This document shows positions 145-7,942 of a stretch of DNA of 7,942 nucleotides, piece by piece. A program made the position numbers and the translations under genes. This DNA comes from a virus (taxonomy: Duplodnaviria > Heunggongvirae > Uroviricota > Caudoviricetes). Within the stretch, counting starts at the first letter, position 1. Every line of letters begins with the position of its first letter. The notes under the pieces are model-generated. The model searched no databases and was not told the DNA's origin. It worked only from the letters and a program-made list of their open reading frames with translations. The stretch is from the IMG/VR virus record IMGVR_UViG_2529293139_000009; one strand, 5' to 3'.

Positions 145-171
145 AATCTCCCTTACACGGGCTTATTTTTT
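145..171. other. Phage attachment-site core (attR), 27 bp, P2-type
   Basis: The reverse complement of 145-171 reads AAAAAATAAGCCCGTGTAAGGGAGATT, which matches the 27-bp P2 att core as I remember it. Its position just past ogr is where attP lies in P2 (ogr-attP-int). Confidence 0.6.
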
Positions 172-212
172 ACGCGTAATACAATGAAATAAAAGGATTT
201 ATTTCTGGTCAC

Positions 213-230
213 GTCCACACATTGACCACA
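213..230 (-). promoter_or_regulatory. Candidate integrase arm-type binding sites (two direct repeats)
   Basis: The minus strand reads TGTGGTCA-atg-TGTGGACG, two 8-bp direct repeats spaced 11 bp start to start (one helical turn), between the ogr terminator and the att core. The link to tyrosine-integrase arm sites is inference. Confidence 0.35.
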
Positions 231-231
231 T

Positions 232-259
232 CGACAAAAAAGCCCCTCGACTGAGGGGC
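232..259 (-). terminator. Rho-independent terminator downstream of ogr, ending the late tail/ogr transcript
   Basis: Minus strand has a GC-rich hairpin GCCCCTC-AGTC-GAGGGGC (plus 242-259) immediately followed by TTTTTTG (plus 235-241), 14 nt past the ogr stop. Confidence 0.8.
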
Positions 260-272
260 TTCCTGTTTGTAA

Positions 273-491
273 TTACATCCACATAATTTGCTGCCCTGAC
301 GGCAACGGGTGCGGTCTTACGGCGTGGACTTCTCCCGGCTTCACGATGTATCGCTGTACCGACTCATAAGTGATAAACGTGGCGCTGCAATTCACGTTCT
401 GACACTGGTGATAACGCTCTTTTGTCGTGTCAGTGATATAGCGGCTTGTACGCGCATGTGCGGCATGCTGGCATAAAGGACAATGAAACAT
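273..491 (-). CDS. ogr: Ogr, zinc-finger late-gene transcriptional activator (72 aa)
   Basis: Translation MFHCPLCQHAAHARTSRYITDTTKERYHQCQNVNC... has the Cys4 arrangement CxxC-22-CxxxxC and is recognised as P2 Ogr. Start placed at the internal ATG at 491, which has an RBS GAGGTG 6 nt upstream, not at the ORF-track start at 554. Confidence 0.9.
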   Translation of the reverse strand: MFHCPLCQHAAHARTSRYITDTTKERYHQCQNVNCSATFITYESVQRYIVKPGEVHAVRPHPLPSGQQIMWM

Positions 492-525
492 CGCGAGCAC
501 CTCTTCCGATTTTGTTGATGGTGCC

Positions 526-554
526 ATTTTAGTTAATTTATCCTTATAAAACAA
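526..554 (-). promoter_or_regulatory. Candidate sigma70-type promoter for ogr
   Basis: Minus strand reads TTGTTT (plus 549-554), a 17-nt spacer, then TAAAAT (plus 526-531), in the AT-rich D-ogr intergenic region. Pattern match only. Confidence 0.3.
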
Positions 555-572
555 ACAGATAAAATAAAAACA

Positions 573-1736
573 TCACTCATCATCTTCTGTTTCGTACTCC
601 ACATCAGAAAGCCTGACCTCAAGCTCCAAGGACGTCGTGAAGCCGCTATTATTCAGAAAATGTGTCACCTTAGTGATTGTCCAGTCCTGCTCGTCTATGA
701 CGCGCTTAAAGCCTGACACTTTGACCGGCGTTTCCGTGTAAATATCTGCCCGACCAGTAGCCAGGCTGATGGAGAACTCCGCAACGCCCCGTTGCAGTTT
801 GTCCCACTTCGCCTGAGCGGCGCGCATAGCCTGCGCTTTTGTGGCATATACCGTGGTCAGGGCAAAAACGTTGTCAGCTTCACCGGCCATGTATTCACCT
901 TCGCGCGCTTCCGGTACTTTTGGCGCTTTCTTCTGCGTGACCGGTTTCGCTTTCGGGTGCTCCAGTGCGCGCAGGTGTTTTTCTTTCTTTTTGCGTTTCA
1001 GTTTTACCTTCTGCTTTTGCGGCTTCGGGTCTTTGGTGTGTAACCACTTTGCCGTTACGCCGGTGTAAGCTCCACGGTCAGCAATCGCAAAATGATGACG
1101 GTCACCGTCGCTGCGGGTGATGGTAATCTGCGGGATTTTTTTACCGCTGGCAGTCACCCCCTGCCCCGCTTTGAGAAACAACAGTTTTCCCATTTTTACC
1201 GACACCTCACCGCCGTTGCGTTCAGCAAGGCGGGTCAGAAATTTCGCATCAGACTCCTGCGACTGGTCGATGTGCGGGATTTTAATTCCGTCCAGTGACG
1301 GCGCGACACTGGCTTCCAGCTTGTTACGGGAGGCTATCGCCTCAACAATCGCACCGAGCGTGGTGTCATGCCATGAGCCTTCACGGCGGGAATTGAGCGT
1401 CCCGCGAAAATCTGCACTCCGGGCGCGGATGGTAACCACATCCGGCGCGCCCCGGTGTTCAACCTCATCAACGGTGAATTTCCCTTTGCATACCAGGGCA
1501 AAACCTTTCCAGCCGATATACACCGTCAGGACAGCGCCACGAACCGGCAGCCCGACCTGCCCGTCGGCATCGTTCAGTTCAATATCAAGCTGGTCAGCCT
1601 CAAAGCCCCGGTTATCCGTCAGGGTCATGCTCATCAGACGGTCGCTGATATTGCCGGTAATATCCCTGCTGTCGAGCATCAGCATGTAATCCGGCGTCAG
1701 CGTACTGCCTGCATCAAATGTCAGCGCATCCAGCAT
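573..1736 (-). CDS. D: Tail protein gpD (387 aa), P2 D-like late tail gene product
   Basis: 387-aa ORF recognised as P2 gpD by sequence and by position (last gene of the tail operon before ogr). Its ATG overlaps the U stop (TAATG). Confidence 0.9.
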   Translation of the reverse strand: MLDALTFDAGSTLTPDYMLMLDSRDITGNISDRLMSMTLTDNRGFEADQLDIELNDADGQVGLPVRGAVLTVYIGWKGFALVCKGKFTVDEVEHRGAPDVVTIRARSADFRGTLNSRREGSWHDTTLGAIVEAIASRNKLEASVAPSLDGIKIPHIDQSQESDAKFLTRLAERNGGEVSVKMGKLLFLKAGQGVTASGKKIPQITITRSDGDRHHFAIADRGAYTGVTAKWLHTKDPKPQKQKVKLKRKKKEKHLRALEHPKAKPVTQKKAPKVPEAREGEYMAGEADNVFALTTVYATKAQAMRAAQAKWDKLQRGVAEFSISLATGRADIYTETPVKVSGFKRVIDEQDWTITKVTHFLNNSGFTTSLELEVRLSDVEYETEDDE

Positions 1737-2215
1737 TATCCCGCCCCCGTCATACCCGTGAATTTAGTCGCCATACTGCCAGCCTTACCGATGAGCGATT
1801 CCGCCTGTTTACCGATATCGCCATAAAGCGCGGCCAGTGATTCATCAACGCGGGTGAGCGACAGCGTAAAATCAATTTTCCGGGGTGTGCCGTCTGCAAA
1901 GAAAATACTCCCTGTTTCATTCACCCTGCTGATGACATACATGCCGTAAATCATGCCGGTGCCATCCAGCAACGGCCACGCCCGACCTTCCTCTGCCATC
2001 AGTCTGAGCGTGGTCATCGTCAGCTTGCCGCCGGTCAGTTCGGGATAAAGCACGCCGGCAAGCGTAATGTTTTCCTCACCCACACCGAGAAACTGAAAGG
2101 CATCCCGTTTACCGATACGGGAATTTGACGGCCAGCGATAATCTGATTCACGCTGCATGGTCTGGTGTGGCAGCGTCTGGCGCATAAAAACAAACATACC
2201 TAACGCGAGCATCAT
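1736..2215 (-). CDS. U: Tail protein gpU (159 aa)
   Basis: 159-aa ORF between T and D, recognised as P2 gpU. A strong RBS GGAGGTGA sits 6 nt upstream, directly after the T stop codon. Confidence 0.9.
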   Translation of the reverse strand: MMLALGMFVFMRQTLPHQTMQRESDYRWPSNSRIGKRDAFQFLGVGEENITLAGVLYPELTGGKLTMTTLRLMAEEGRAWPLLDGTGMIYGMYVISRVNETGSIFFADGTPRKIDFTLSLTRVDESLAALYGDIGKQAESLIGKAGSMATKFTGMTGAG

Positions 2216-2229
2216 TTTTCGTCACCTCC

Positions 2230-4677
2230 TTAACCGTCATGCATCATGCTGGCACGGGCGCGCGCACGTTTATCCCGCTCATATTTTTCGAGCGCATCCT
2301 GTAACTGGCGGTCGAGCTGAGTCCCCGGCGCAGTACCGCCCGTCAGACTGATGTGATATTCGTTTTTACTCTGGTCCACATAAGAGCGGCCAGCCGGTGC
2401 CGTAACCGGCTGATAAGCCTGATAGCCTGCATAAGAGCTGGTCGCCGGAATATAACCACCGGTGCCATACGTGGCGGCATGAGTTCTGGCGGCGGTCTGG
2501 TCAAGTGTGTCTGACTCTTTGTTGATAACACCGAGTTTTTCCAGTACCCAGTCAATACCACTGCGCAGTTTGTTGAACGCATTAAGCGGCAGCATCAACG
2601 CGTCAGCCAGTGCCTGCCCGAACATGACGCCCGTGTCACGGCAACGGTTCAGGGTGTCCTGGGTGGCTTTAACCGGGGCAATCAGGTTTTTAAACCACTG
2701 CCACGCGGCCTGTAACTTTTCGCCCAGCCAGTCAAACACCGGCTTAAGTGGCGTGAACAGTTCCCCCACCGGCGCAAATGCCGCTTTCAGCCCTTCCACC
2801 ACACCGCCAAAGAATGCGCTGACAGGCTCCCAGTATTTACGGATAAGCAACGCCCCGGCGACAATGGCGGCCACCACGGCCACAACCGGCCAGCTAATCG
2901 CTCCGATGGCGGTCATAACAGCACTGCCAACCGTCGTGAAGATTGCCCCCATTGCGCCTGCTGCCGCGATGATGGCATTGATGCCGGTGATAACCGGCCA
3001 GGCTACGAGGCCAATGGCACCGATGACACCAATCAGTGCCAGTGCACCACCGACAATAAGTCCGATGGTTGACGCCAGTGATTTGTTTTTCTGGATCCAG
3101 CCGTCGAGTTTTAACACATACTTTGTGGCCGTCTGCGTGAGCTTACGCAGTGCGCCTTCCTGCTGGTCAAACAGGTCAGTCCCCACCGCCTCATAAGCGG
3201 ACTGAAACTCTTTAAAGTCACCGCCTAGGTTGTCCTGCATGATATTTACCAGCTCGGCAGTCTTCCCGTCTGAGGCTTTAAACGCAGCGGTCAGTTTGTC
3301 CAGCTTTCCGGTTGAGGCGGCAGTCATCAGCACGGCGGCGGCTGAGCTGGCCTCCTCCCCGAAAATAGTTTTCATGTATTCAGCCTGCTGGGCAGTACCG
3401 AGCCGGTTTTTCTCAAAACTGGCCTGCATTTCTTTCAGAATGGTAAATATTGGCCGGGTGTTTCCCTTGCTGTCTGAGGTTTTCACGCCAAGCTCTTTGA
3501 GTGCATCCCATGCTTTTCCCGTCGGTGCCTGCAGGCGGCTTAACACGGCACGGCTTCCCGTCCCCGCCATTGAGCCTGTGATTTTTGCATCATGCAGCGC
3601 CCCGACCATTGCGGCGGTTTCTTCAATGCTGACACCGGCATTTTTTGCCACAGGTGCGGCATAGGTCAGCGCATCGCTCATACCGTCAAAATCGGCGGCG
3701 GTTTTGTTCATCGTCATGGAGAGAACATCCCCGATATGAGCGACCTTATCGTTTGAAAGCTGAAAGGCGGATTTCATCCCCATCAGCAGGGCGGCGTTTT
3801 CTTCCATCGTGCGGCGGTTCGCCAGCGCCATATTCAGCGTGACCGGCGTTGCCGCCTGAATGGCATCAACATCCCCACCCGCTTTCGCAATAATAATCTG
3901 CGCACCGGCCGCATCATCCGCCGAGGCGGCGGTGTTGTCGCCGAGCTGGCGCGCCTGTTTGCGGAGCGCGGCCATTTCGGCGGAGTCTTTTGCCACTCCG
4001 AGCACAGCCTGTAATTCTGAGTTTTTCTGCGCAAACTCATAACCGGGCATCAGCAGCTTAACTCCGGCCATCGTTCCCGCCGCCGCAATCCCCACACCGG
4101 CAGCGCCCACTGAGGCCATATTTCCGGCCAGTTCCTTGCCGGCCTGATAACGCTGTTTGACTGCGTTAAGTTTTGCCTGTTGTTCACTGACACGCGCCAG
4201 TGCATCGCGCTGACGGTTAAGCTGTGCGGTGGTTTCACTGATACGGTTTTTCAGCCCCTGCTCATCATGTGCAAGATTGCGGGTATTAATTCCCACAGCG
4301 GCCAGTTCCCGCTGCTGGCGCTTAACGGAATCCGTCAGGCGGTTATATTTCGCCTGTAAGTCCTCCGCCGCACGCTTCGCGGATTCCAGCACTTTCGCCT
4401 GAGCACGTGTCGGACGTTCAGTGTTTTTAAACTGTGTGGCAAGGGCTTCGGCCTCCTGCCGTGCCTTTTCAAGTGCATGACCAGTCACGGCGAGCTGTGC
4501 GCTGGTCTTGCGAAATCCCTCAATACGGGATGCGTGACCGTTCAGCTCGCGCAGTGATTTTTGTGTTTCCCGGATATCCCCCGACAGCGACTTGCTCGCT
4601 GTGCGGATGGATTTAAACGGGCGGGATGCCTGGTCAACAGCCCTGAGCAATACCTGTAATTTTACATTGTTACTCAT
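2230..4677 (-). CDS. T: Tail tape measure protein gpT (815 aa)
   Basis: 815-aa ORF with an N-terminal coiled-coil-like, Ala/Gln/Arg-rich region and a long Gly/Ala/Ile hydrophobic segment (residues about 533-612), typical of tape measure proteins. Size and position match P2 gpT. Confidence 0.92.
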   Translation of the reverse strand: MSNNVKLQVLLRAVDQASRPFKSIRTASKSLSGDIRETQKSLRELNGHASRIEGFRKTSAQLAVTGHALEKARQEAEALATQFKNTERPTRAQAKVLESAKRAAEDLQAKYNRLTDSVKRQQRELAAVGINTRNLAHDEQGLKNRISETTAQLNRQRDALARVSEQQAKLNAVKQRYQAGKELAGNMASVGAAGVGIAAAGTMAGVKLLMPGYEFAQKNSELQAVLGVAKDSAEMAALRKQARQLGDNTAASADDAAGAQIIIAKAGGDVDAIQAATPVTLNMALANRRTMEENAALLMGMKSAFQLSNDKVAHIGDVLSMTMNKTAADFDGMSDALTYAAPVAKNAGVSIEETAAMVGALHDAKITGSMAGTGSRAVLSRLQAPTGKAWDALKELGVKTSDSKGNTRPIFTILKEMQASFEKNRLGTAQQAEYMKTIFGEEASSAAAVLMTAASTGKLDKLTAAFKASDGKTAELVNIMQDNLGGDFKEFQSAYEAVGTDLFDQQEGALRKLTQTATKYVLKLDGWIQKNKSLASTIGLIVGGALALIGVIGAIGLVAWPVITGINAIIAAAGAMGAIFTTVGSAVMTAIGAISWPVVAVVAAIVAGALLIRKYWEPVSAFFGGVVEGLKAAFAPVGELFTPLKPVFDWLGEKLQAAWQWFKNLIAPVKATQDTLNRCRDTGVMFGQALADALMLPLNAFNKLRSGIDWVLEKLGVINKESDTLDQTAARTHAATYGTGGYIPATSSYAGYQAYQPVTAPAGRSYVDQSKNEYHISLTGGTAPGTQLDRQLQDALEKYERDKRARARASMMHDG

Positions 4678-5097
4678 TCGTGTTTCCGCTTCGCCGGAGC
4701 GCCTTTTCGCGCCATGTGATAAGTTCGGTCAGGCTCATGGGATACAGTTCTGATGGCGGCCAGTGAAATATCACTGCCACATCCGCCATCAGGTCATCGA
4801 CCGAGAGATTTTTCGGAAACGTTACTGCACCGAGTTCGGCGACAAAAAACCGACCACCTTACCGGCCAGCGCCACAAGGTCAGGCAGTTCCAGCGCGGCG
4901 ACCTCCTGCTCGGTCAGCATCGGTGCCGTCATGCGCGGCAGCACTTTAATCAGTGCATCGACTTCGGAGTTTGCGACCGCAGCCAGACTGACACCGCGCA
5001 GCGTCCCGGCATTGGGTTTCATCAGCGTGACCTGTTCGATAACCTGCTCACCACGCTTGACCGGATTGTCCAGGGTAATCACATTTTCTTTGTTCAT
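4670..5097 (-). CDS. E': gpE+E' fusion made by -1 programmed ribosomal frameshift (85 aa of E plus a 57-aa extension, 142 aa total)
   Basis: My hand translation of the -1 frame after the slip site runs VAELGAVTFPKNLSVDDLMADVAVIFHWPPSELYPMSLTELITWREKALRRSGNTNE to a TAA at 4670-4672, overlapping the T start codon by 8 nt. This is the P2 E/E' arrangement, analogous to lambda G/GT. Confidence 0.75.
4822..5097 (-). CDS. E: Tail assembly chaperone gpE (91 aa, zero-frame product)
   Basis: 91-aa ORF between FII and T, recognised as P2 gpE. Contains the slippery heptamer T-TTT-TTG near its 3' end. Confidence 0.9.
   Translation of the reverse strand: MNKENVITLDNPVKRGEQVIEQVTLMKPNAGTLRGVSLAAVANSEVDALIKVLPRMTAPMLTEQEVAALELPDLVALAGKVVGFLSPNSVQ
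4843..4849 (-). other. Slippery heptamer T-TTT-TTG for the E/E' -1 frameshift
   Basis: The minus strand reads GGT TTT TTG TCG in the E frame (plus strand 4843-4849 is CAAAAAA), an X-XXY-YYZ motif. Confidence 0.75.
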
Positions 5098-5125
5098 GGT
5101 TTTCTCACTTCTGAATCAGGGTTAA

Positions 5126-5146
5126 CCGGTCAGCCTGGCTGACCGG
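5126..5146 (-). other. Perfect 21-bp palindrome in the FII-E intergenic region (possible mRNA hairpin)
   Basis: CCGGTCAGCC-T-GGCTGACCGG at 5126-5146, between the FII stop (5154) and the E start (5097). No U-tract follows on the transcript strand, so it is not a canonical intrinsic terminator. Confidence 0.5.
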
Positions 5147-5153
5147 ATGAAAA

Positions 5154-5672
5154 TCACAGGCCGATATTGCGGCGGTGTTGCTCCAGCCGGTCGGCGCCGT
5201 TCACCTTCTCAATCATGTTGATGGTGTCGATTTCGACCAGCTCCTTACCGTCCATCGTCAGCCGGAAATAGGTGCAGACCACGGAAATTTTCGACTCGGT
5301 GTCTTCTCCCTGTTTACCCTCGCCGGTGTCGATTTCTTTCTGACGTCCACGCATGACCACCTCGACGGCTACCGTTTCGCCGGTATCGTCGCGCTGGTAA
5401 GAGCCTGCAAAACGAATCGGCACAGCATCCACACCGGTTGCGGCGTAAAGCTCCCAGATAACCGAATCCGGGAAGCCCCCGAGCGACCACTCCATTGACA
5501 GCGCATCGTCATCAAGGCCGAGGTCTACCGGTGCGCTTCCGTTCATCCCCGCACCGCGATAGTTTTCGAGTTTACGGGTCAGTTTTGGCAGCGTGACGGA
5601 CTTTGCAACGCCCTGATAGCTGTAGCCGTTCAGAAAGACGTTCATTAACTTGAGTTTGCGCGGCATTGCCAT
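5154..5672 (-). CDS. FII: Tail tube protein gpFII (172 aa)
   Basis: 172-aa ORF immediately downstream of the sheath gene, recognised as P2 FII. RBS AAGGAG overlaps the FI stop codon. Confidence 0.92.
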   Translation of the reverse strand: MAMPRKLKLMNVFLNGYSYQGVAKSVTLPKLTRKLENYRGAGMNGSAPVDLGLDDDALSMEWSLGGFPDSVIWELYAATGVDAVPIRFAGSYQRDDTGETVAVEVVMRGRQKEIDTGEGKQGEDTESKISVVCTYFRLTMDGKELVEIDTINMIEKVNGADRLEQHRRNIGL

Positions 5673-5684
5673 CGGTCAGGCTCC

Positions 5685-6872
5685 TTAATTGCTGTTAACC
5701 GAGGTGACCAGATTTGCCAGGTATTTATCGGTAATACGCTGGCGCAGGGTCAGGTTTTCAAGAGGAGGAACCGGGGTATAGTCGTAGTCGATATACAGTT
5801 TTCCGGCCTTAAGGGTTTCCGCATCGTTGGATTCTTTGCTGAACCAGCAGGTCGCATCCACGATATAGCCGTTTGTTTTCAGCTCACGAAATTTGGCATT
5901 GATGCCGTCAACGATGTCGCGAATCAGCGTTGCGGTGATGGGCTTGTCAACCGCCCACATGTGCGCCTCAGCCATCGTGTCGGCCAGCACCTGCGCGGTG
6001 CGGGTGTAGTTTTCAAAGAGGAACAGCGGGTCATCAGAGCAGGTACGGTTACCCCAGAATCGGAAACCGTCGCGGCGAATCAGCGTAGTGACGCCTGACT
6101 CGTTAAGCAGGTCAGCATCGGTGCCGGACTCCTGCAAATCCCAGAATACAGATGCGCTGATGCCGGTAACACCGTTTACCCCGACGTTGGACAGCGTTTT
6201 ATGCCATCCCTGCTCCTGGTCGATTTTAGCGCGCAGACCCAGCGCACGGGCGGTGGCATACGCGGTGGCGGTGGTACTGGTGACCGTATCCCATGCGAGG
6301 AAATCCGGCCAGATGACCATCAGCTCACGCTGGCTGAAATTCTGGCGGTAGGCTTTCACCTCGGAAATGGTCTTACAGCCCCATGCGCTGATATATCCGA
6401 AAGCGCGCAGCTTCTGACAGACGGATGCCAATGCAACTGCCACCTCTTTGGTATCCAGTCCCGGCACACCGAGAATACGCGGTTTAACACCGGTTACCGA
6501 CTCCGCCGCCAGCAGGGCTTTTAGTCCGGTGTACTGACCGTTTTCGTCGGTGGTGCCGATGATATTGGAAACGGTCTGCGCGAGTTTCGTTTCCTCGTCG
6601 CCGGTGCCGTCTTCCACACGCACGACAACGGTGACCGGTTTTGACTGGTCGGCGATGGCCTGCAACGATGCCGCCAGCGTGCCTTTTTTACCGGCCTTTG
6701 CAATTGCGCTCTGCACATTGGTAATCAGCACCGGTTTATTGACGGGGAAGGTTTCCGCATCCGCATCGCTGGCCGTGCAGACCATGCCAACAATGGCGGT
6801 GGATACAGTGGAAATGACGCGGGTGCCGTCGTTAATCTCCAGCACCTGCACGCCGTGATGATAGTCACTCAT
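5685..6872 (-). CDS. FI: Contractile tail sheath protein gpFI (395 aa)
   Basis: 395-aa ORF, first gene of the FI-FII-E-T-U-D block, recognised as P2 FI. RBS GGAG 8 nt upstream of the ATG at 6872. Confidence 0.92.
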   Translation of the reverse strand: MSDYHHGVQVLEINDGTRVISTVSTAIVGMVCTASDADAETFPVNKPVLITNVQSAIAKAGKKGTLAASLQAIADQSKPVTVVVRVEDGTGDEETKLAQTVSNIIGTTDENGQYTGLKALLAAESVTGVKPRILGVPGLDTKEVAVALASVCQKLRAFGYISAWGCKTISEVKAYRQNFSQRELMVIWPDFLAWDTVTSTTATAYATARALGLRAKIDQEQGWHKTLSNVGVNGVTGISASVFWDLQESGTDADLLNESGVTTLIRRDGFRFWGNRTCSDDPLFLFENYTRTAQVLADTMAEAHMWAVDKPITATLIRDIVDGINAKFRELKTNGYIVDATCWFSKESNDAETLKAGKLYIDYDYTPVPPLENLTLRQRITDKYLANLVTSVNSN

Positions 6873-6931
6873 CCGTTTAACTCCGTGGTTAATGGGTGAG
6901 TGTTATTTTCAGTTGTGCCGGAGATGTCAGG

Positions 6932-7525
6932 CTATTTGTCCCGGTTGGCTAAGGGATGACACAATTTATTCTTTGCCGCTGATGAGGGGAGTTTTTTATA
7001 GAGCGTGGACAGGCCAATATCAAAAATCAGCGCCACGCGTTGACGTGATTCACCCGCAGCCAGCAACCGTCCTGCCTGTTCCCACTCACTCGCGGTGAGC
7101 TTCGGACGTCTGCCACCAATACGCCCTTTGGCTCTGGCCGCTTCCAGTCCGGCGCGTGTCCGCTCGACAATGAGTTCTCGCTCCATTTCAGCCAGGGGAC
7201 CCATCACATGAAAGAAAAAACGCCCCATCGGCGTGCTGGTATCAATAGCATCTGTCAGGCTGCGAAAATTAACGCCGCGTTCGCGCAGCTCCTCAACCAG
7301 AATGACCAGATGCCGCATACTACGCCCCAGCCGGTCCAGCTTCCAGACTACCAGAGTGTCACCTGCTGATAATGTTCTGAGCAGTTTTTTCAGTCCCGGT
7401 CGGTCGGACTTCGTGCCGCTGATTTTATCCTCAAAAATCCGCTCGCATCCTGCGCACTCCAGCGCGTTACGCTGCAATTCCGTGTTCTGGTCATTTGTTG
7501 ACACGCGTACATAGCCAATAAGCAT
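6932..7525 (-). CDS. Serine DNA invertase of the Gin/Pin/Cin/Hin family (about 197 aa)
   Basis: N-terminus MLIGYVRVSTNDQNTELQRNAL carries the catalytic serine motif, followed by DTLVVWKLDRLGRS and the conserved GRFFFHVMGPLAEMERELIVERT block, with a C-terminal helix-turn-helix (VALIFDIGLSTLYKK). This is near-collinear with Gin and Hin as I recall them. Start set at the second ATG (7525) because the GGGGG RBS abuts the first ATG at 7531. Confidence 0.9.
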   Translation of the reverse strand: MLIGYVRVSTNDQNTELQRNALECAGCERIFEDKISGTKSDRPGLKKLLRTLSAGDTLVVWKLDRLGRSMRHLVILVEELRERGVNFRSLTDAIDTSTPMGRFFFHVMGPLAEMERELIVERTRAGLEAARAKGRIGGRRPKLTASEWEQAGRLLAAGESRQRVALIFDIGLSTLYKKLPSSAAKNKLCHPLANRDK

Positions 7526-7552
7526 GAGCATCCCCCTGAATAAAAACCGGAG

Positions 7553-7942
7553 ATGATGCCAGTTGCCCGTTATCTCTGCATTTTCATAAACGTTGGTTTG
7601 GGAGAAGGCTCTGCATTACCTGTTGGTGTCCCTGTTCCGTGGCCTTCAGCCACTCCGCCAACAGGCTGGCTGAAATGCAATGGTGCAGCTTTTTCTGCTG
7701 AAGAATACCCGGAACTGGCAAAGGCTTATCCGACAAATAAATTGCCTGATTTACGTGGTGAGTTTATTCGCGGCTGGGATGACGGGCGCGGGGTTGACTC
7801 TGGACGAGGTTTGTTGACGGCGCAGGCGGAAACAAAGATAACTAACCACCACGGCAATGGCGGTAACGCTGATGATATTTCGGCTGGTGTCTCCGGTTCA
7901 CCTCCCAAAAAACTTTGTCAGAAACGCGGATTCGGCAGTTAA
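7553..7942 (+). CDS. Tail-fibre variable C-terminal segment (Mu/P1 S-variable-like), alternate-orientation cassette of an invertible segment; possibly truncated
   Basis: The stretch PVGVPVPWPSATPPTGWLKCNGAAFSAEEYPELAKAYPTNKLPDLRGEFIRGWDDGRG resembles the conserved start of Mu/P1/e14 tail-fibre variable parts just after the crossover site. The first 13 or so codons lie outside the putative invertible segment, and the ORF's stop codon is the last 3 nt of the window. Confidence 0.6.
   Translation: MMPVARYLCIFINVGLGEGSALPVGVPVPWPSATPPTGWLKCNGAAFSAEEYPELAKAYPTNKLPDLRGEFIRGWDDGRGVDSGRGLLTAQAETKITNHHGNGGNADDISAGVSGSPPKKLCQKRGFGS
7581..7606. other. Candidate 26-bp invertase crossover site (hix/gix/cix-like)
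   Basis: TTTTCATAAACG-TT-GGTTTGGGAGAA fits the imperfect-palindrome architecture xxxxxxAAACx-NN-GGTTTxxGAxAA of hixL (TTCTTGAAAACCAAGGTTTTTGATAA, from memory). It lies 55 bp upstream of the invertase start, inside the 5' end of the tail-fibre ORF. Confidence 0.55.

Follow-up and report, generated by a model that had tools for sequence, protein, structure and literature searches.

A probable Mu G-type invertible tail-fibre segment beside the F operon of a P2 prophage in Escherichia coli

The 7,942-nucleotide stretch analysed here (hereafter the window) resembles phage P2 along most of its length, but its last kilobase (6932-7942) carries a recombinase gene and a short tail-fibre reading frame that P2 does not have at this place, which raises the question of what has been put next to the P2 F operon and whether it could switch the host range of the phage. 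An initial annotation had described a complete Gin/Pin/Cin-type invertase gene on the strand of the tail operon, a crossover site and an oppositely oriented tail-fibre cassette, had called the whole a shufflon in the position of the P2 Z/fun locus, and had attributed the end of the window to an assembly break. We consider, with a probability of about 0.88, that the last kilobase is the invertase end of a Mu G-type invertible tail-fibre segment in a true P2 prophage of E. coli near yegQ.

The P2 backbone and the replaced block

Positions 145-6952 of the window align with P2 (NC_001895) 17572-24382 at 97.0% identity in a single BLAST alignment of about 6.8 kb. The open reading frame listing and Pfam place ogr (273-491/554), D (573-1736), U (1736-2215), T (2230-4677), E/E' (4822-5097 plus the frameshift product) and FII (5154-5672) on the minus strand, followed by the tail sheath gene FI (5685-6872, minus strand), which is the first gene of the P2 F operon, has Pfam sheath domains, is 97% identical to that of P2 and, as the flank of the insert, defines its position. 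A 28-nt copy of the P2 attP core with one mismatch (144-171) marks the prophage-chromosome junction next to yegQ, presumably also the site of the ogrK remnant in E. coli K-12. From the P2 alignment and the attP core it follows that the window covers the right-hand end of a true P2 prophage together with the point where it joins the chromosome. Collinearity with P2 at high nucleotide identity extends to the late genes, to ogr and to the att core, and in the source scaffold V-W-J-I are 95% identical to P2, so that the prophage, judged from its sequence, is an otherwise intact-looking P2. The source is an E. coli draft scaffold of 2.64 Mb (GL871772.1, assembly GCA_000190815.1), in which the window corresponds to positions 2446-10387 of the locus that we refer to as L005. 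Compared with the closest complete genome, FI also shows an in-frame deletion of 3 nt at window position 6597 (395 aa instead of 396).

In P2, fun(Z) (15675-17261) lies on the opposite strand directly upstream of the activator site of the late promoter PF (17555-17583) and of FI, as the initial annotation had it. The P2 homology of the window ends at 6952, equivalent to P2 17572 and thus inside the activator site, and this is the right-hand boundary of the replaced block. According to the P2 annotation and the alignment, the counterpart of this Ogr-binding activator site lies at 6941-6969 (minus strand), where the last 12 or so codons of the invertase gene overlap it (6932-6969); with P2 homology starting at 6952, conserved promoter DNA thus encodes the C-terminal tail of the enzyme, and only 59 nt separate the invertase stop from the start of FI. 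On the far side, in the source scaffold, the P2 homology ends within gene I. With boundaries at 6952 and in I, the replaced block therefore comprises the end of I, H, G and fun(Z). The invertase and the cassette do occupy the Z/fun position as first proposed, but the replacement goes well beyond Z/fun. DNA invertases have been noted as often present at the Z/fun hotspot (bioRxiv 10.1101/2024.10.15.618418).

The invertase, its crossover sites and the cassette

The invertase gene lies on the minus strand at 6932-7525 and encodes a Gin-like serine DNA invertase of 197 aa beginning with MLIGYVRVS. Translation from another in-frame ATG, at 7531, would yield 199 aa; the ATG at 7525, which is the RefSeq start in the relatives, is likely the real start. 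The protein combines a Resolvase catalytic domain (Pfam, E 1e-51) with a C-terminal helix-turn-helix (HTH_7, E 7.6e-13), matches the PHROG family 'DNA invertase' at E 5e-99, and matches the Gin crystal structure 3UJ3 over residues 1-184 at E 6.7e-94, compared with E 2e-32 for gamma-delta resolvase, which places it closer to the invertases than to the resolvases. Its sequence identity is 77% with Mu Gin, 87% with a pinE-type enzyme and 99% with WP_000905106.1 from related prophages. The catalytic Ser9 (MLIGYVRVS9TNDQ) and the catalytic residues D64, R65 and R68 are present and invariant across the alignment. In Hin, the Fis-contact residues Q151/R154/L155 and the basic residues 47/48/51 of helix B are uniquely conserved in the Fis-dependent DNA invertases (PMC3798978). 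The window invertase has all of them, as Q150/R153/L154 and K46/K47/R50 respectively (Gin numbering being that of Hin minus 1).

An invertase-proximal 26-bp crossover site, TTTTCATAAACG-TT-GGTTTGGGAGAA, is located at 7581-7606, with its core TT at 7593-7594 and its inner half-site at 7595-7606. It differs from the hix/gix consensus by 0 or 1 mismatch on the two strands, while 200 shuffles gave a chance expectation of 0.00, and it lies 55 bp upstream of the ATG at 7525, where it aligns with Mu gixR at the same position relative to gin. Beyond the window, about 1.5 kb away in the source scaffold, a second site in inverted orientation, TTCTCGCATACC-TT-GGTTTGGGAGAA, lies inside gene H (L005 11542-11567), exactly at the border between the constant and the variable part of the protein (...AYL/GLGEGS...). 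In the source scaffold as well as in the six related complete loci described below there are exactly two 26-bp sites, inverted with respect to each other and sharing the TT core and an identical inner half-site. The invertase, the crossover site and the opposed cassette of the initial annotation are thereby confirmed, and so are its expectations of a second inverted site within a few kilobases and of a constant tail-fibre part upstream. The word shufflon, however, fits only loosely: the strict, R64-type shufflon has a tyrosine recombinase (Rci) and more than two sites, whereas two sites and a serine enzyme make a segment of the Mu G type.

The 5' part of the invertase gene contains a candidate recombinational enhancer (7440-7505, minus strand), which by its position and by homology would be sis-like and Fis-binding. 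Two G-N13-C 15-mers occur at the Mu-homologous positions 7490-7504 and 7441-7455, the former about 96 bp from the crossover core; in Hin, the enhancer lies about 100 bp from hixL (PMC3798978). The 5' coding DNA of the invertase aligns with the gixR-gin region of Mu, which includes the sis enhancer, without gaps and at about 80% mean column identity, a value that coding constraint alone could explain. From what is known of the family, the enzyme would depend on Fis and on this enhancer. A simple scan of 6800-7700 for invertase promoters gave no sigma-70-like candidate, and it returned terminator-like matches inside the coding sequence. A terminator-like hairpin with a T-run was also noticed between the crossover site and the invertase start (7545-7564, minus strand). 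It is partly kept in Mu and, speculatively, might restrain transcription that runs on from the H operon towards the invertase.

The first 350 nt of the invertible segment (7593-7942, plus strand), starting at the core TT, constitute a C-terminal tail-fibre cassette, which we call cassette X. It was recognised through an open reading frame at 7553/7556-7942 (129/128 aa depending on the start ATG) that encodes a Phage Tail Collar domain (E 8.5e-16) and runs opposite to the tail operon. We rejected the annotated reading frame 7556-7942 as a real gene and regard it as an artefact of ORF calling. Cassette X is predicted to be silent, given that it is promoterless and N-terminally incomplete, and inversion would fuse it to the constant part of H. 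In the same scaffold it recurs in mirror image, one A apart, as the variable end of H. Elsewhere, cassette X is found beside the invertase in an E. coli W prophage, fused to H in CM2010-0578/1, and fused to a fibre gene in strain 165; together these settings show the usual exchange of cassettes between unrelated phage families. In strain 165 the fibre belongs to a Mu-like prophage with a pinE-type invertase (loci L003 5525-6280 and L007 5525-6280), and the crossover sites of that prophage share the inner half-site GGTTTGGGAGAA.

Relatives in both orientations and comparison with known systems

The isolated phage pro483 (NC_028943) and prophages of complete genomes are 94-99% identical to the window on the invertase flank, up to 7806-7817. 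Among these relatives, which include the prophages of DCE7, MS20653, CM2010-0578/1 and AHM21C2872I, six related complete prophages have fully assembled segments and the full layout, and a Mu G-like order H - site - [Hv, G / G', Hv'] - site - invertase - FI is annotated, with the constant fibre part outside the segment and, inside it, convergent C-terminal cassettes that each have an assembly-chaperone gene of their own. In order to test whether the sites are used, we built in silico the inverted junction of DCE7, the closest relative, and found it as one contiguous stretch in at least 139 complete genomes (98-99.9% identity). In addition, the 1.9-kb interior of the AHM21C2872I segment is the reverse complement of that of DCE7 (95% identity), with flanks that are about 99% identical. 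Near-identical copies of the locus are present in hundreds of complete E. coli genomes.

The sequences show the invertase gene, the two inverted sites, the cassette with its border in frame in H and the assembly-chaperone gene directly behind it, the position in P2 and the two orientations among the relatives. That the segment flips in this strain and that flipping affects host range we infer; for the flipping, the two orientations among the relatives, the mirror-image arms of the source scaffold described below and the inversion measured in other P2-like prophages speak indirectly. In phage orientation the locus would read H(constant) - site - [Hv, tail-fibre-assembly gene / second assembly gene', Hv'] - site - invertase - PF - FI. 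The Gin-like serine invertase would bind the two inverted 26-bp sites and, by analogy with the family, would be activated by a Fis-bound enhancer in its own 5' coding region; cutting at the central TT followed by a 180-degree rotation would then flip the segment of about 1.5-1.9 kb. Each flip would join the constant part of H, its N-terminal 272 residues, to one of two C-terminal receptor-binding cassettes and would also place the matching assembly-chaperone gene downstream, and progeny phage would accordingly carry one of two host ranges.

The closest match in architecture outside the P2 group is the G segment of Mu with its invertase Gin (NC_000929), which has the same order (constant fibre - gixL - [Sv U / U' S'v] - gixR - gin), sites of 26 bp that follow the same consensus, and an invertase whose 5' end is about 50 bp from the site and which is transcribed away from the segment. 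It differs in that the phage here is P2 (Peduovirus), that the segment measures about 1.5-1.9 kb as against 3 kb in Mu, and that the core dinucleotide and the half-site sequences are not the same; also, the window invertase has a longer C-terminal tail than Gin, reading into the PF promoter region. Nearer still, pro483 and its relatives share the tail operon, the invertase, the sites and the position, but they have other cassette combinations, with two different cassettes, and invertases with A110 and F179. The P2-like prophages of EPEC E2348/69 likewise switch tail-fibre C-termini with an invertase and inverted repeats, although one of their two loci, with three repeats and four variants, is a true multiple-inversion system, unlike the two sites found here. 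In these prophages inversion was measured by whole-genome sequencing, and both orientations were present in single-colony cultures (PMC4272514). The C segment and Cin of P1, the P segment and Pin of e14, and Hin of Salmonella belong to the same Fis- and enhancer-dependent subclass of serine invertases and use 26-bp sites, but they reside in other host elements, and what Hin inverts is a promoter, not the end of a coding sequence. P2 itself agrees with the window over the F operon, ogr and the att core (97%), but has a fixed H-G pair and fun(Z), and neither an invertase nor an alternative cassette. The H gene of P2 nevertheless keeps a relic gix-like site, TTATCGAATATCTCGGTTTACAGGAA (13857-13882; L013 4858-4883), which departs from Mu gixL at 3 of its 26 positions and suggests an invertible ancestor for the fixed fibre of P2.

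The mirror-image arms and the state of the switch in this strain

The window does end inside the invertible segment, within cassette X and with the second site beyond it, as the initial annotation had stated. Its end is no assembly break: on the left it begins after the yegQ stop and on the right it closes with the stop of the cassette reading frame, both edges are thus the ends of gene calls, and the window was therefore cut at gene calls and not at the end of a contig. The suspicion that inversion had troubled the assembly was nonetheless right in substance, though not as to the place, given that a gap of 503 N (L005 10549-11051) starts 161 nt past the window end, after the start of a tail-fibre assembly gene and still inside the segment. 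Past the gap the same sequence returns in mirror image and runs into an intact H gene of 430 aa (L005 11089-12381, minus strand). From the central TT to the gap, over about 509 nt on either side, the two arms are identical except for one A; each arm was assembled over these first 509 nt or so only, comprising cassette X and the start of the assembly gene, and the N-gap stands for the interior. A unique, static region would not give such a gap, and two explanations are left: a chimera, or a real long inverted duplication.

Most likely the sequenced culture contained both orientations and the assembler joined them into chimeric arms, since mixed orientations are documented in P2-like prophages (PMC4272514) and a duplication is without precedent in the genomes examined. 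The alternative, in which the segment really has two copies of cassette X and of the assembly-gene start, forming a perfect inverted repeat of at least 509 bp at its ends, seems unlikely, although it deserves to be weighed. Long inverted repeats do break short-read assemblies, and an assembler that could not cross the repeat would explain the gap; the identity of the arms from core to gap would also follow, and their single difference, A6 against A5, could mark two physical copies. Against this, the segment ends of the six complete relatives have only the inner half-site of about 14 nt in common, and a segment with cassette X twice was found in 0 of the 32 complete genomes that have this cassette. 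Moreover, the arms differ in nothing but the length of one homopolymer, in a draft that has a second error of this kind close by, and mixed orientations arise in single-colony cultures of P2-like prophages. The 503 N themselves, compared with 1850-1923 nt between the cores in the relatives, fit neither a two-cassette segment nor a symmetric duplication, and were given no weight in this comparison.

The homopolymer in question is an A6 run at 7907-7912 (plus strand), where the copy linked to H and 32 other genomes have A5. The extra A shifts the frame of cassette X, and the resulting stop (7940-7942) is the end of the window. The same scaffold has, about 5 kb away at the orf30 hotspot, a RelA/SpoT-like gene that is interrupted by A7 in place of A8 (L005 15156) and is otherwise 99.8% identical to its closest relative (the gene occurs in 14 complete genomes, in 11 of them at 99% identity or more). 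Because two homopolymer-length frameshifts lie so close together in one draft, the A6 frameshift is probably a sequencing error rather than a sign of decay.

Four observations count against a working switch in this particular strain, namely an A110P substitution in the invertase, the frameshift of the invertase-proximal cassette as deposited, the absence from the assembly of the interior and of any second cassette, and the failure of the simple scan to find a sigma-70-like promoter for the invertase. The invertase differs from the widespread allele WP_000905106.1 by two private changes, A110P (codon 7196-7198) and F179L (codon 6989-6991), and the exact protein is on record in this assembly only. 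Position 110 is A in all the other invertases of our alignment (eight aligned) and lies in helix E, the oligomerisation helix, between the equivalents of Hin M109 and L112, residues of the ratchet or rotation interface; judging by this location, A110P may cripple the enzyme, or may be another error of the draft. The locus could accordingly be read as a frozen remnant, in which A110P inactivates the invertase and the invertase-proximal cassette is a frameshifted pseudogene. Both substitutions being private to this assembly among all gene positions on record, the position of A110P among rotation-gating residues that are otherwise conserved and the frameshift seen in the window cassette would agree with this. 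We nevertheless regard it as rather improbable, and as less credible than the duplication: the second homopolymer frameshift 5 kb away suggests sequencing errors, single substitutions in a draft may be errors too, and a unique, static region would hardly have given an N-gap between mirror-image arms. Furthermore, Gin, Cin, Pin and Hin complement one another in trans, and at least one homologue is present in about half of the complete E. coli genomes, so that the enzyme of another prophage could flip the segment even if this one could not.

If the inverted duplication of at least 509 bp were real and one copy frameshifted, inversion would alternate between an intact and a truncated fibre tip, an ON/OFF rather than an A/B switch, with A110P altering or abolishing the regulation of the invertase; we hold this combination to be very doubtful. 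Least credible by far is that the recombinase is of the resolvase or transposon type, or serves a host function such as a PinQ/PinR-like inversion-based block of adsorption instead of fibre switching, for although small serine recombinases share a fold (hence the gamma-delta resolvase match) and prophage Pin enzymes reportedly have defence roles (PMC12529663), Gin is by far the better match, the Fis-contact residues specific to invertases are present, the gix-like inverted sites sit exactly at the constant/variable border of H, and the prophage looks otherwise like an intact P2.

An invertible tail-fibre segment in a P2 prophage thus remains the preferred reading. Gin-type fibre switches in P2-like prophages are already described, are widespread in E. 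coli and have been measured in culture, and in biological terms the locus adds nothing new. Its value lies rather in annotation and quality control, in that a short 'phage tail protein' reading frame opposite an invertase marks such a switch in draft genomes, as do N-gaps within the segment, chimeric mirror-image arms and homopolymer frameshifts that give false gene ends. The Z/fun hotspot of P2, which is mined for defence genes, often holds a host-range switch instead.

Lastly, the RelA/SpoT-like gene mentioned above (L005 14999-16098) lies outside the window, between V and S, at the position of P2 orf30. A PADLOC search with the C-terminal half of the broken gene gave no match. In the relatives the gene is annotated as a 'GTP pyrophosphokinase' of 359 aa, and it might be a defence gene of the toxSAS/CapRel type.
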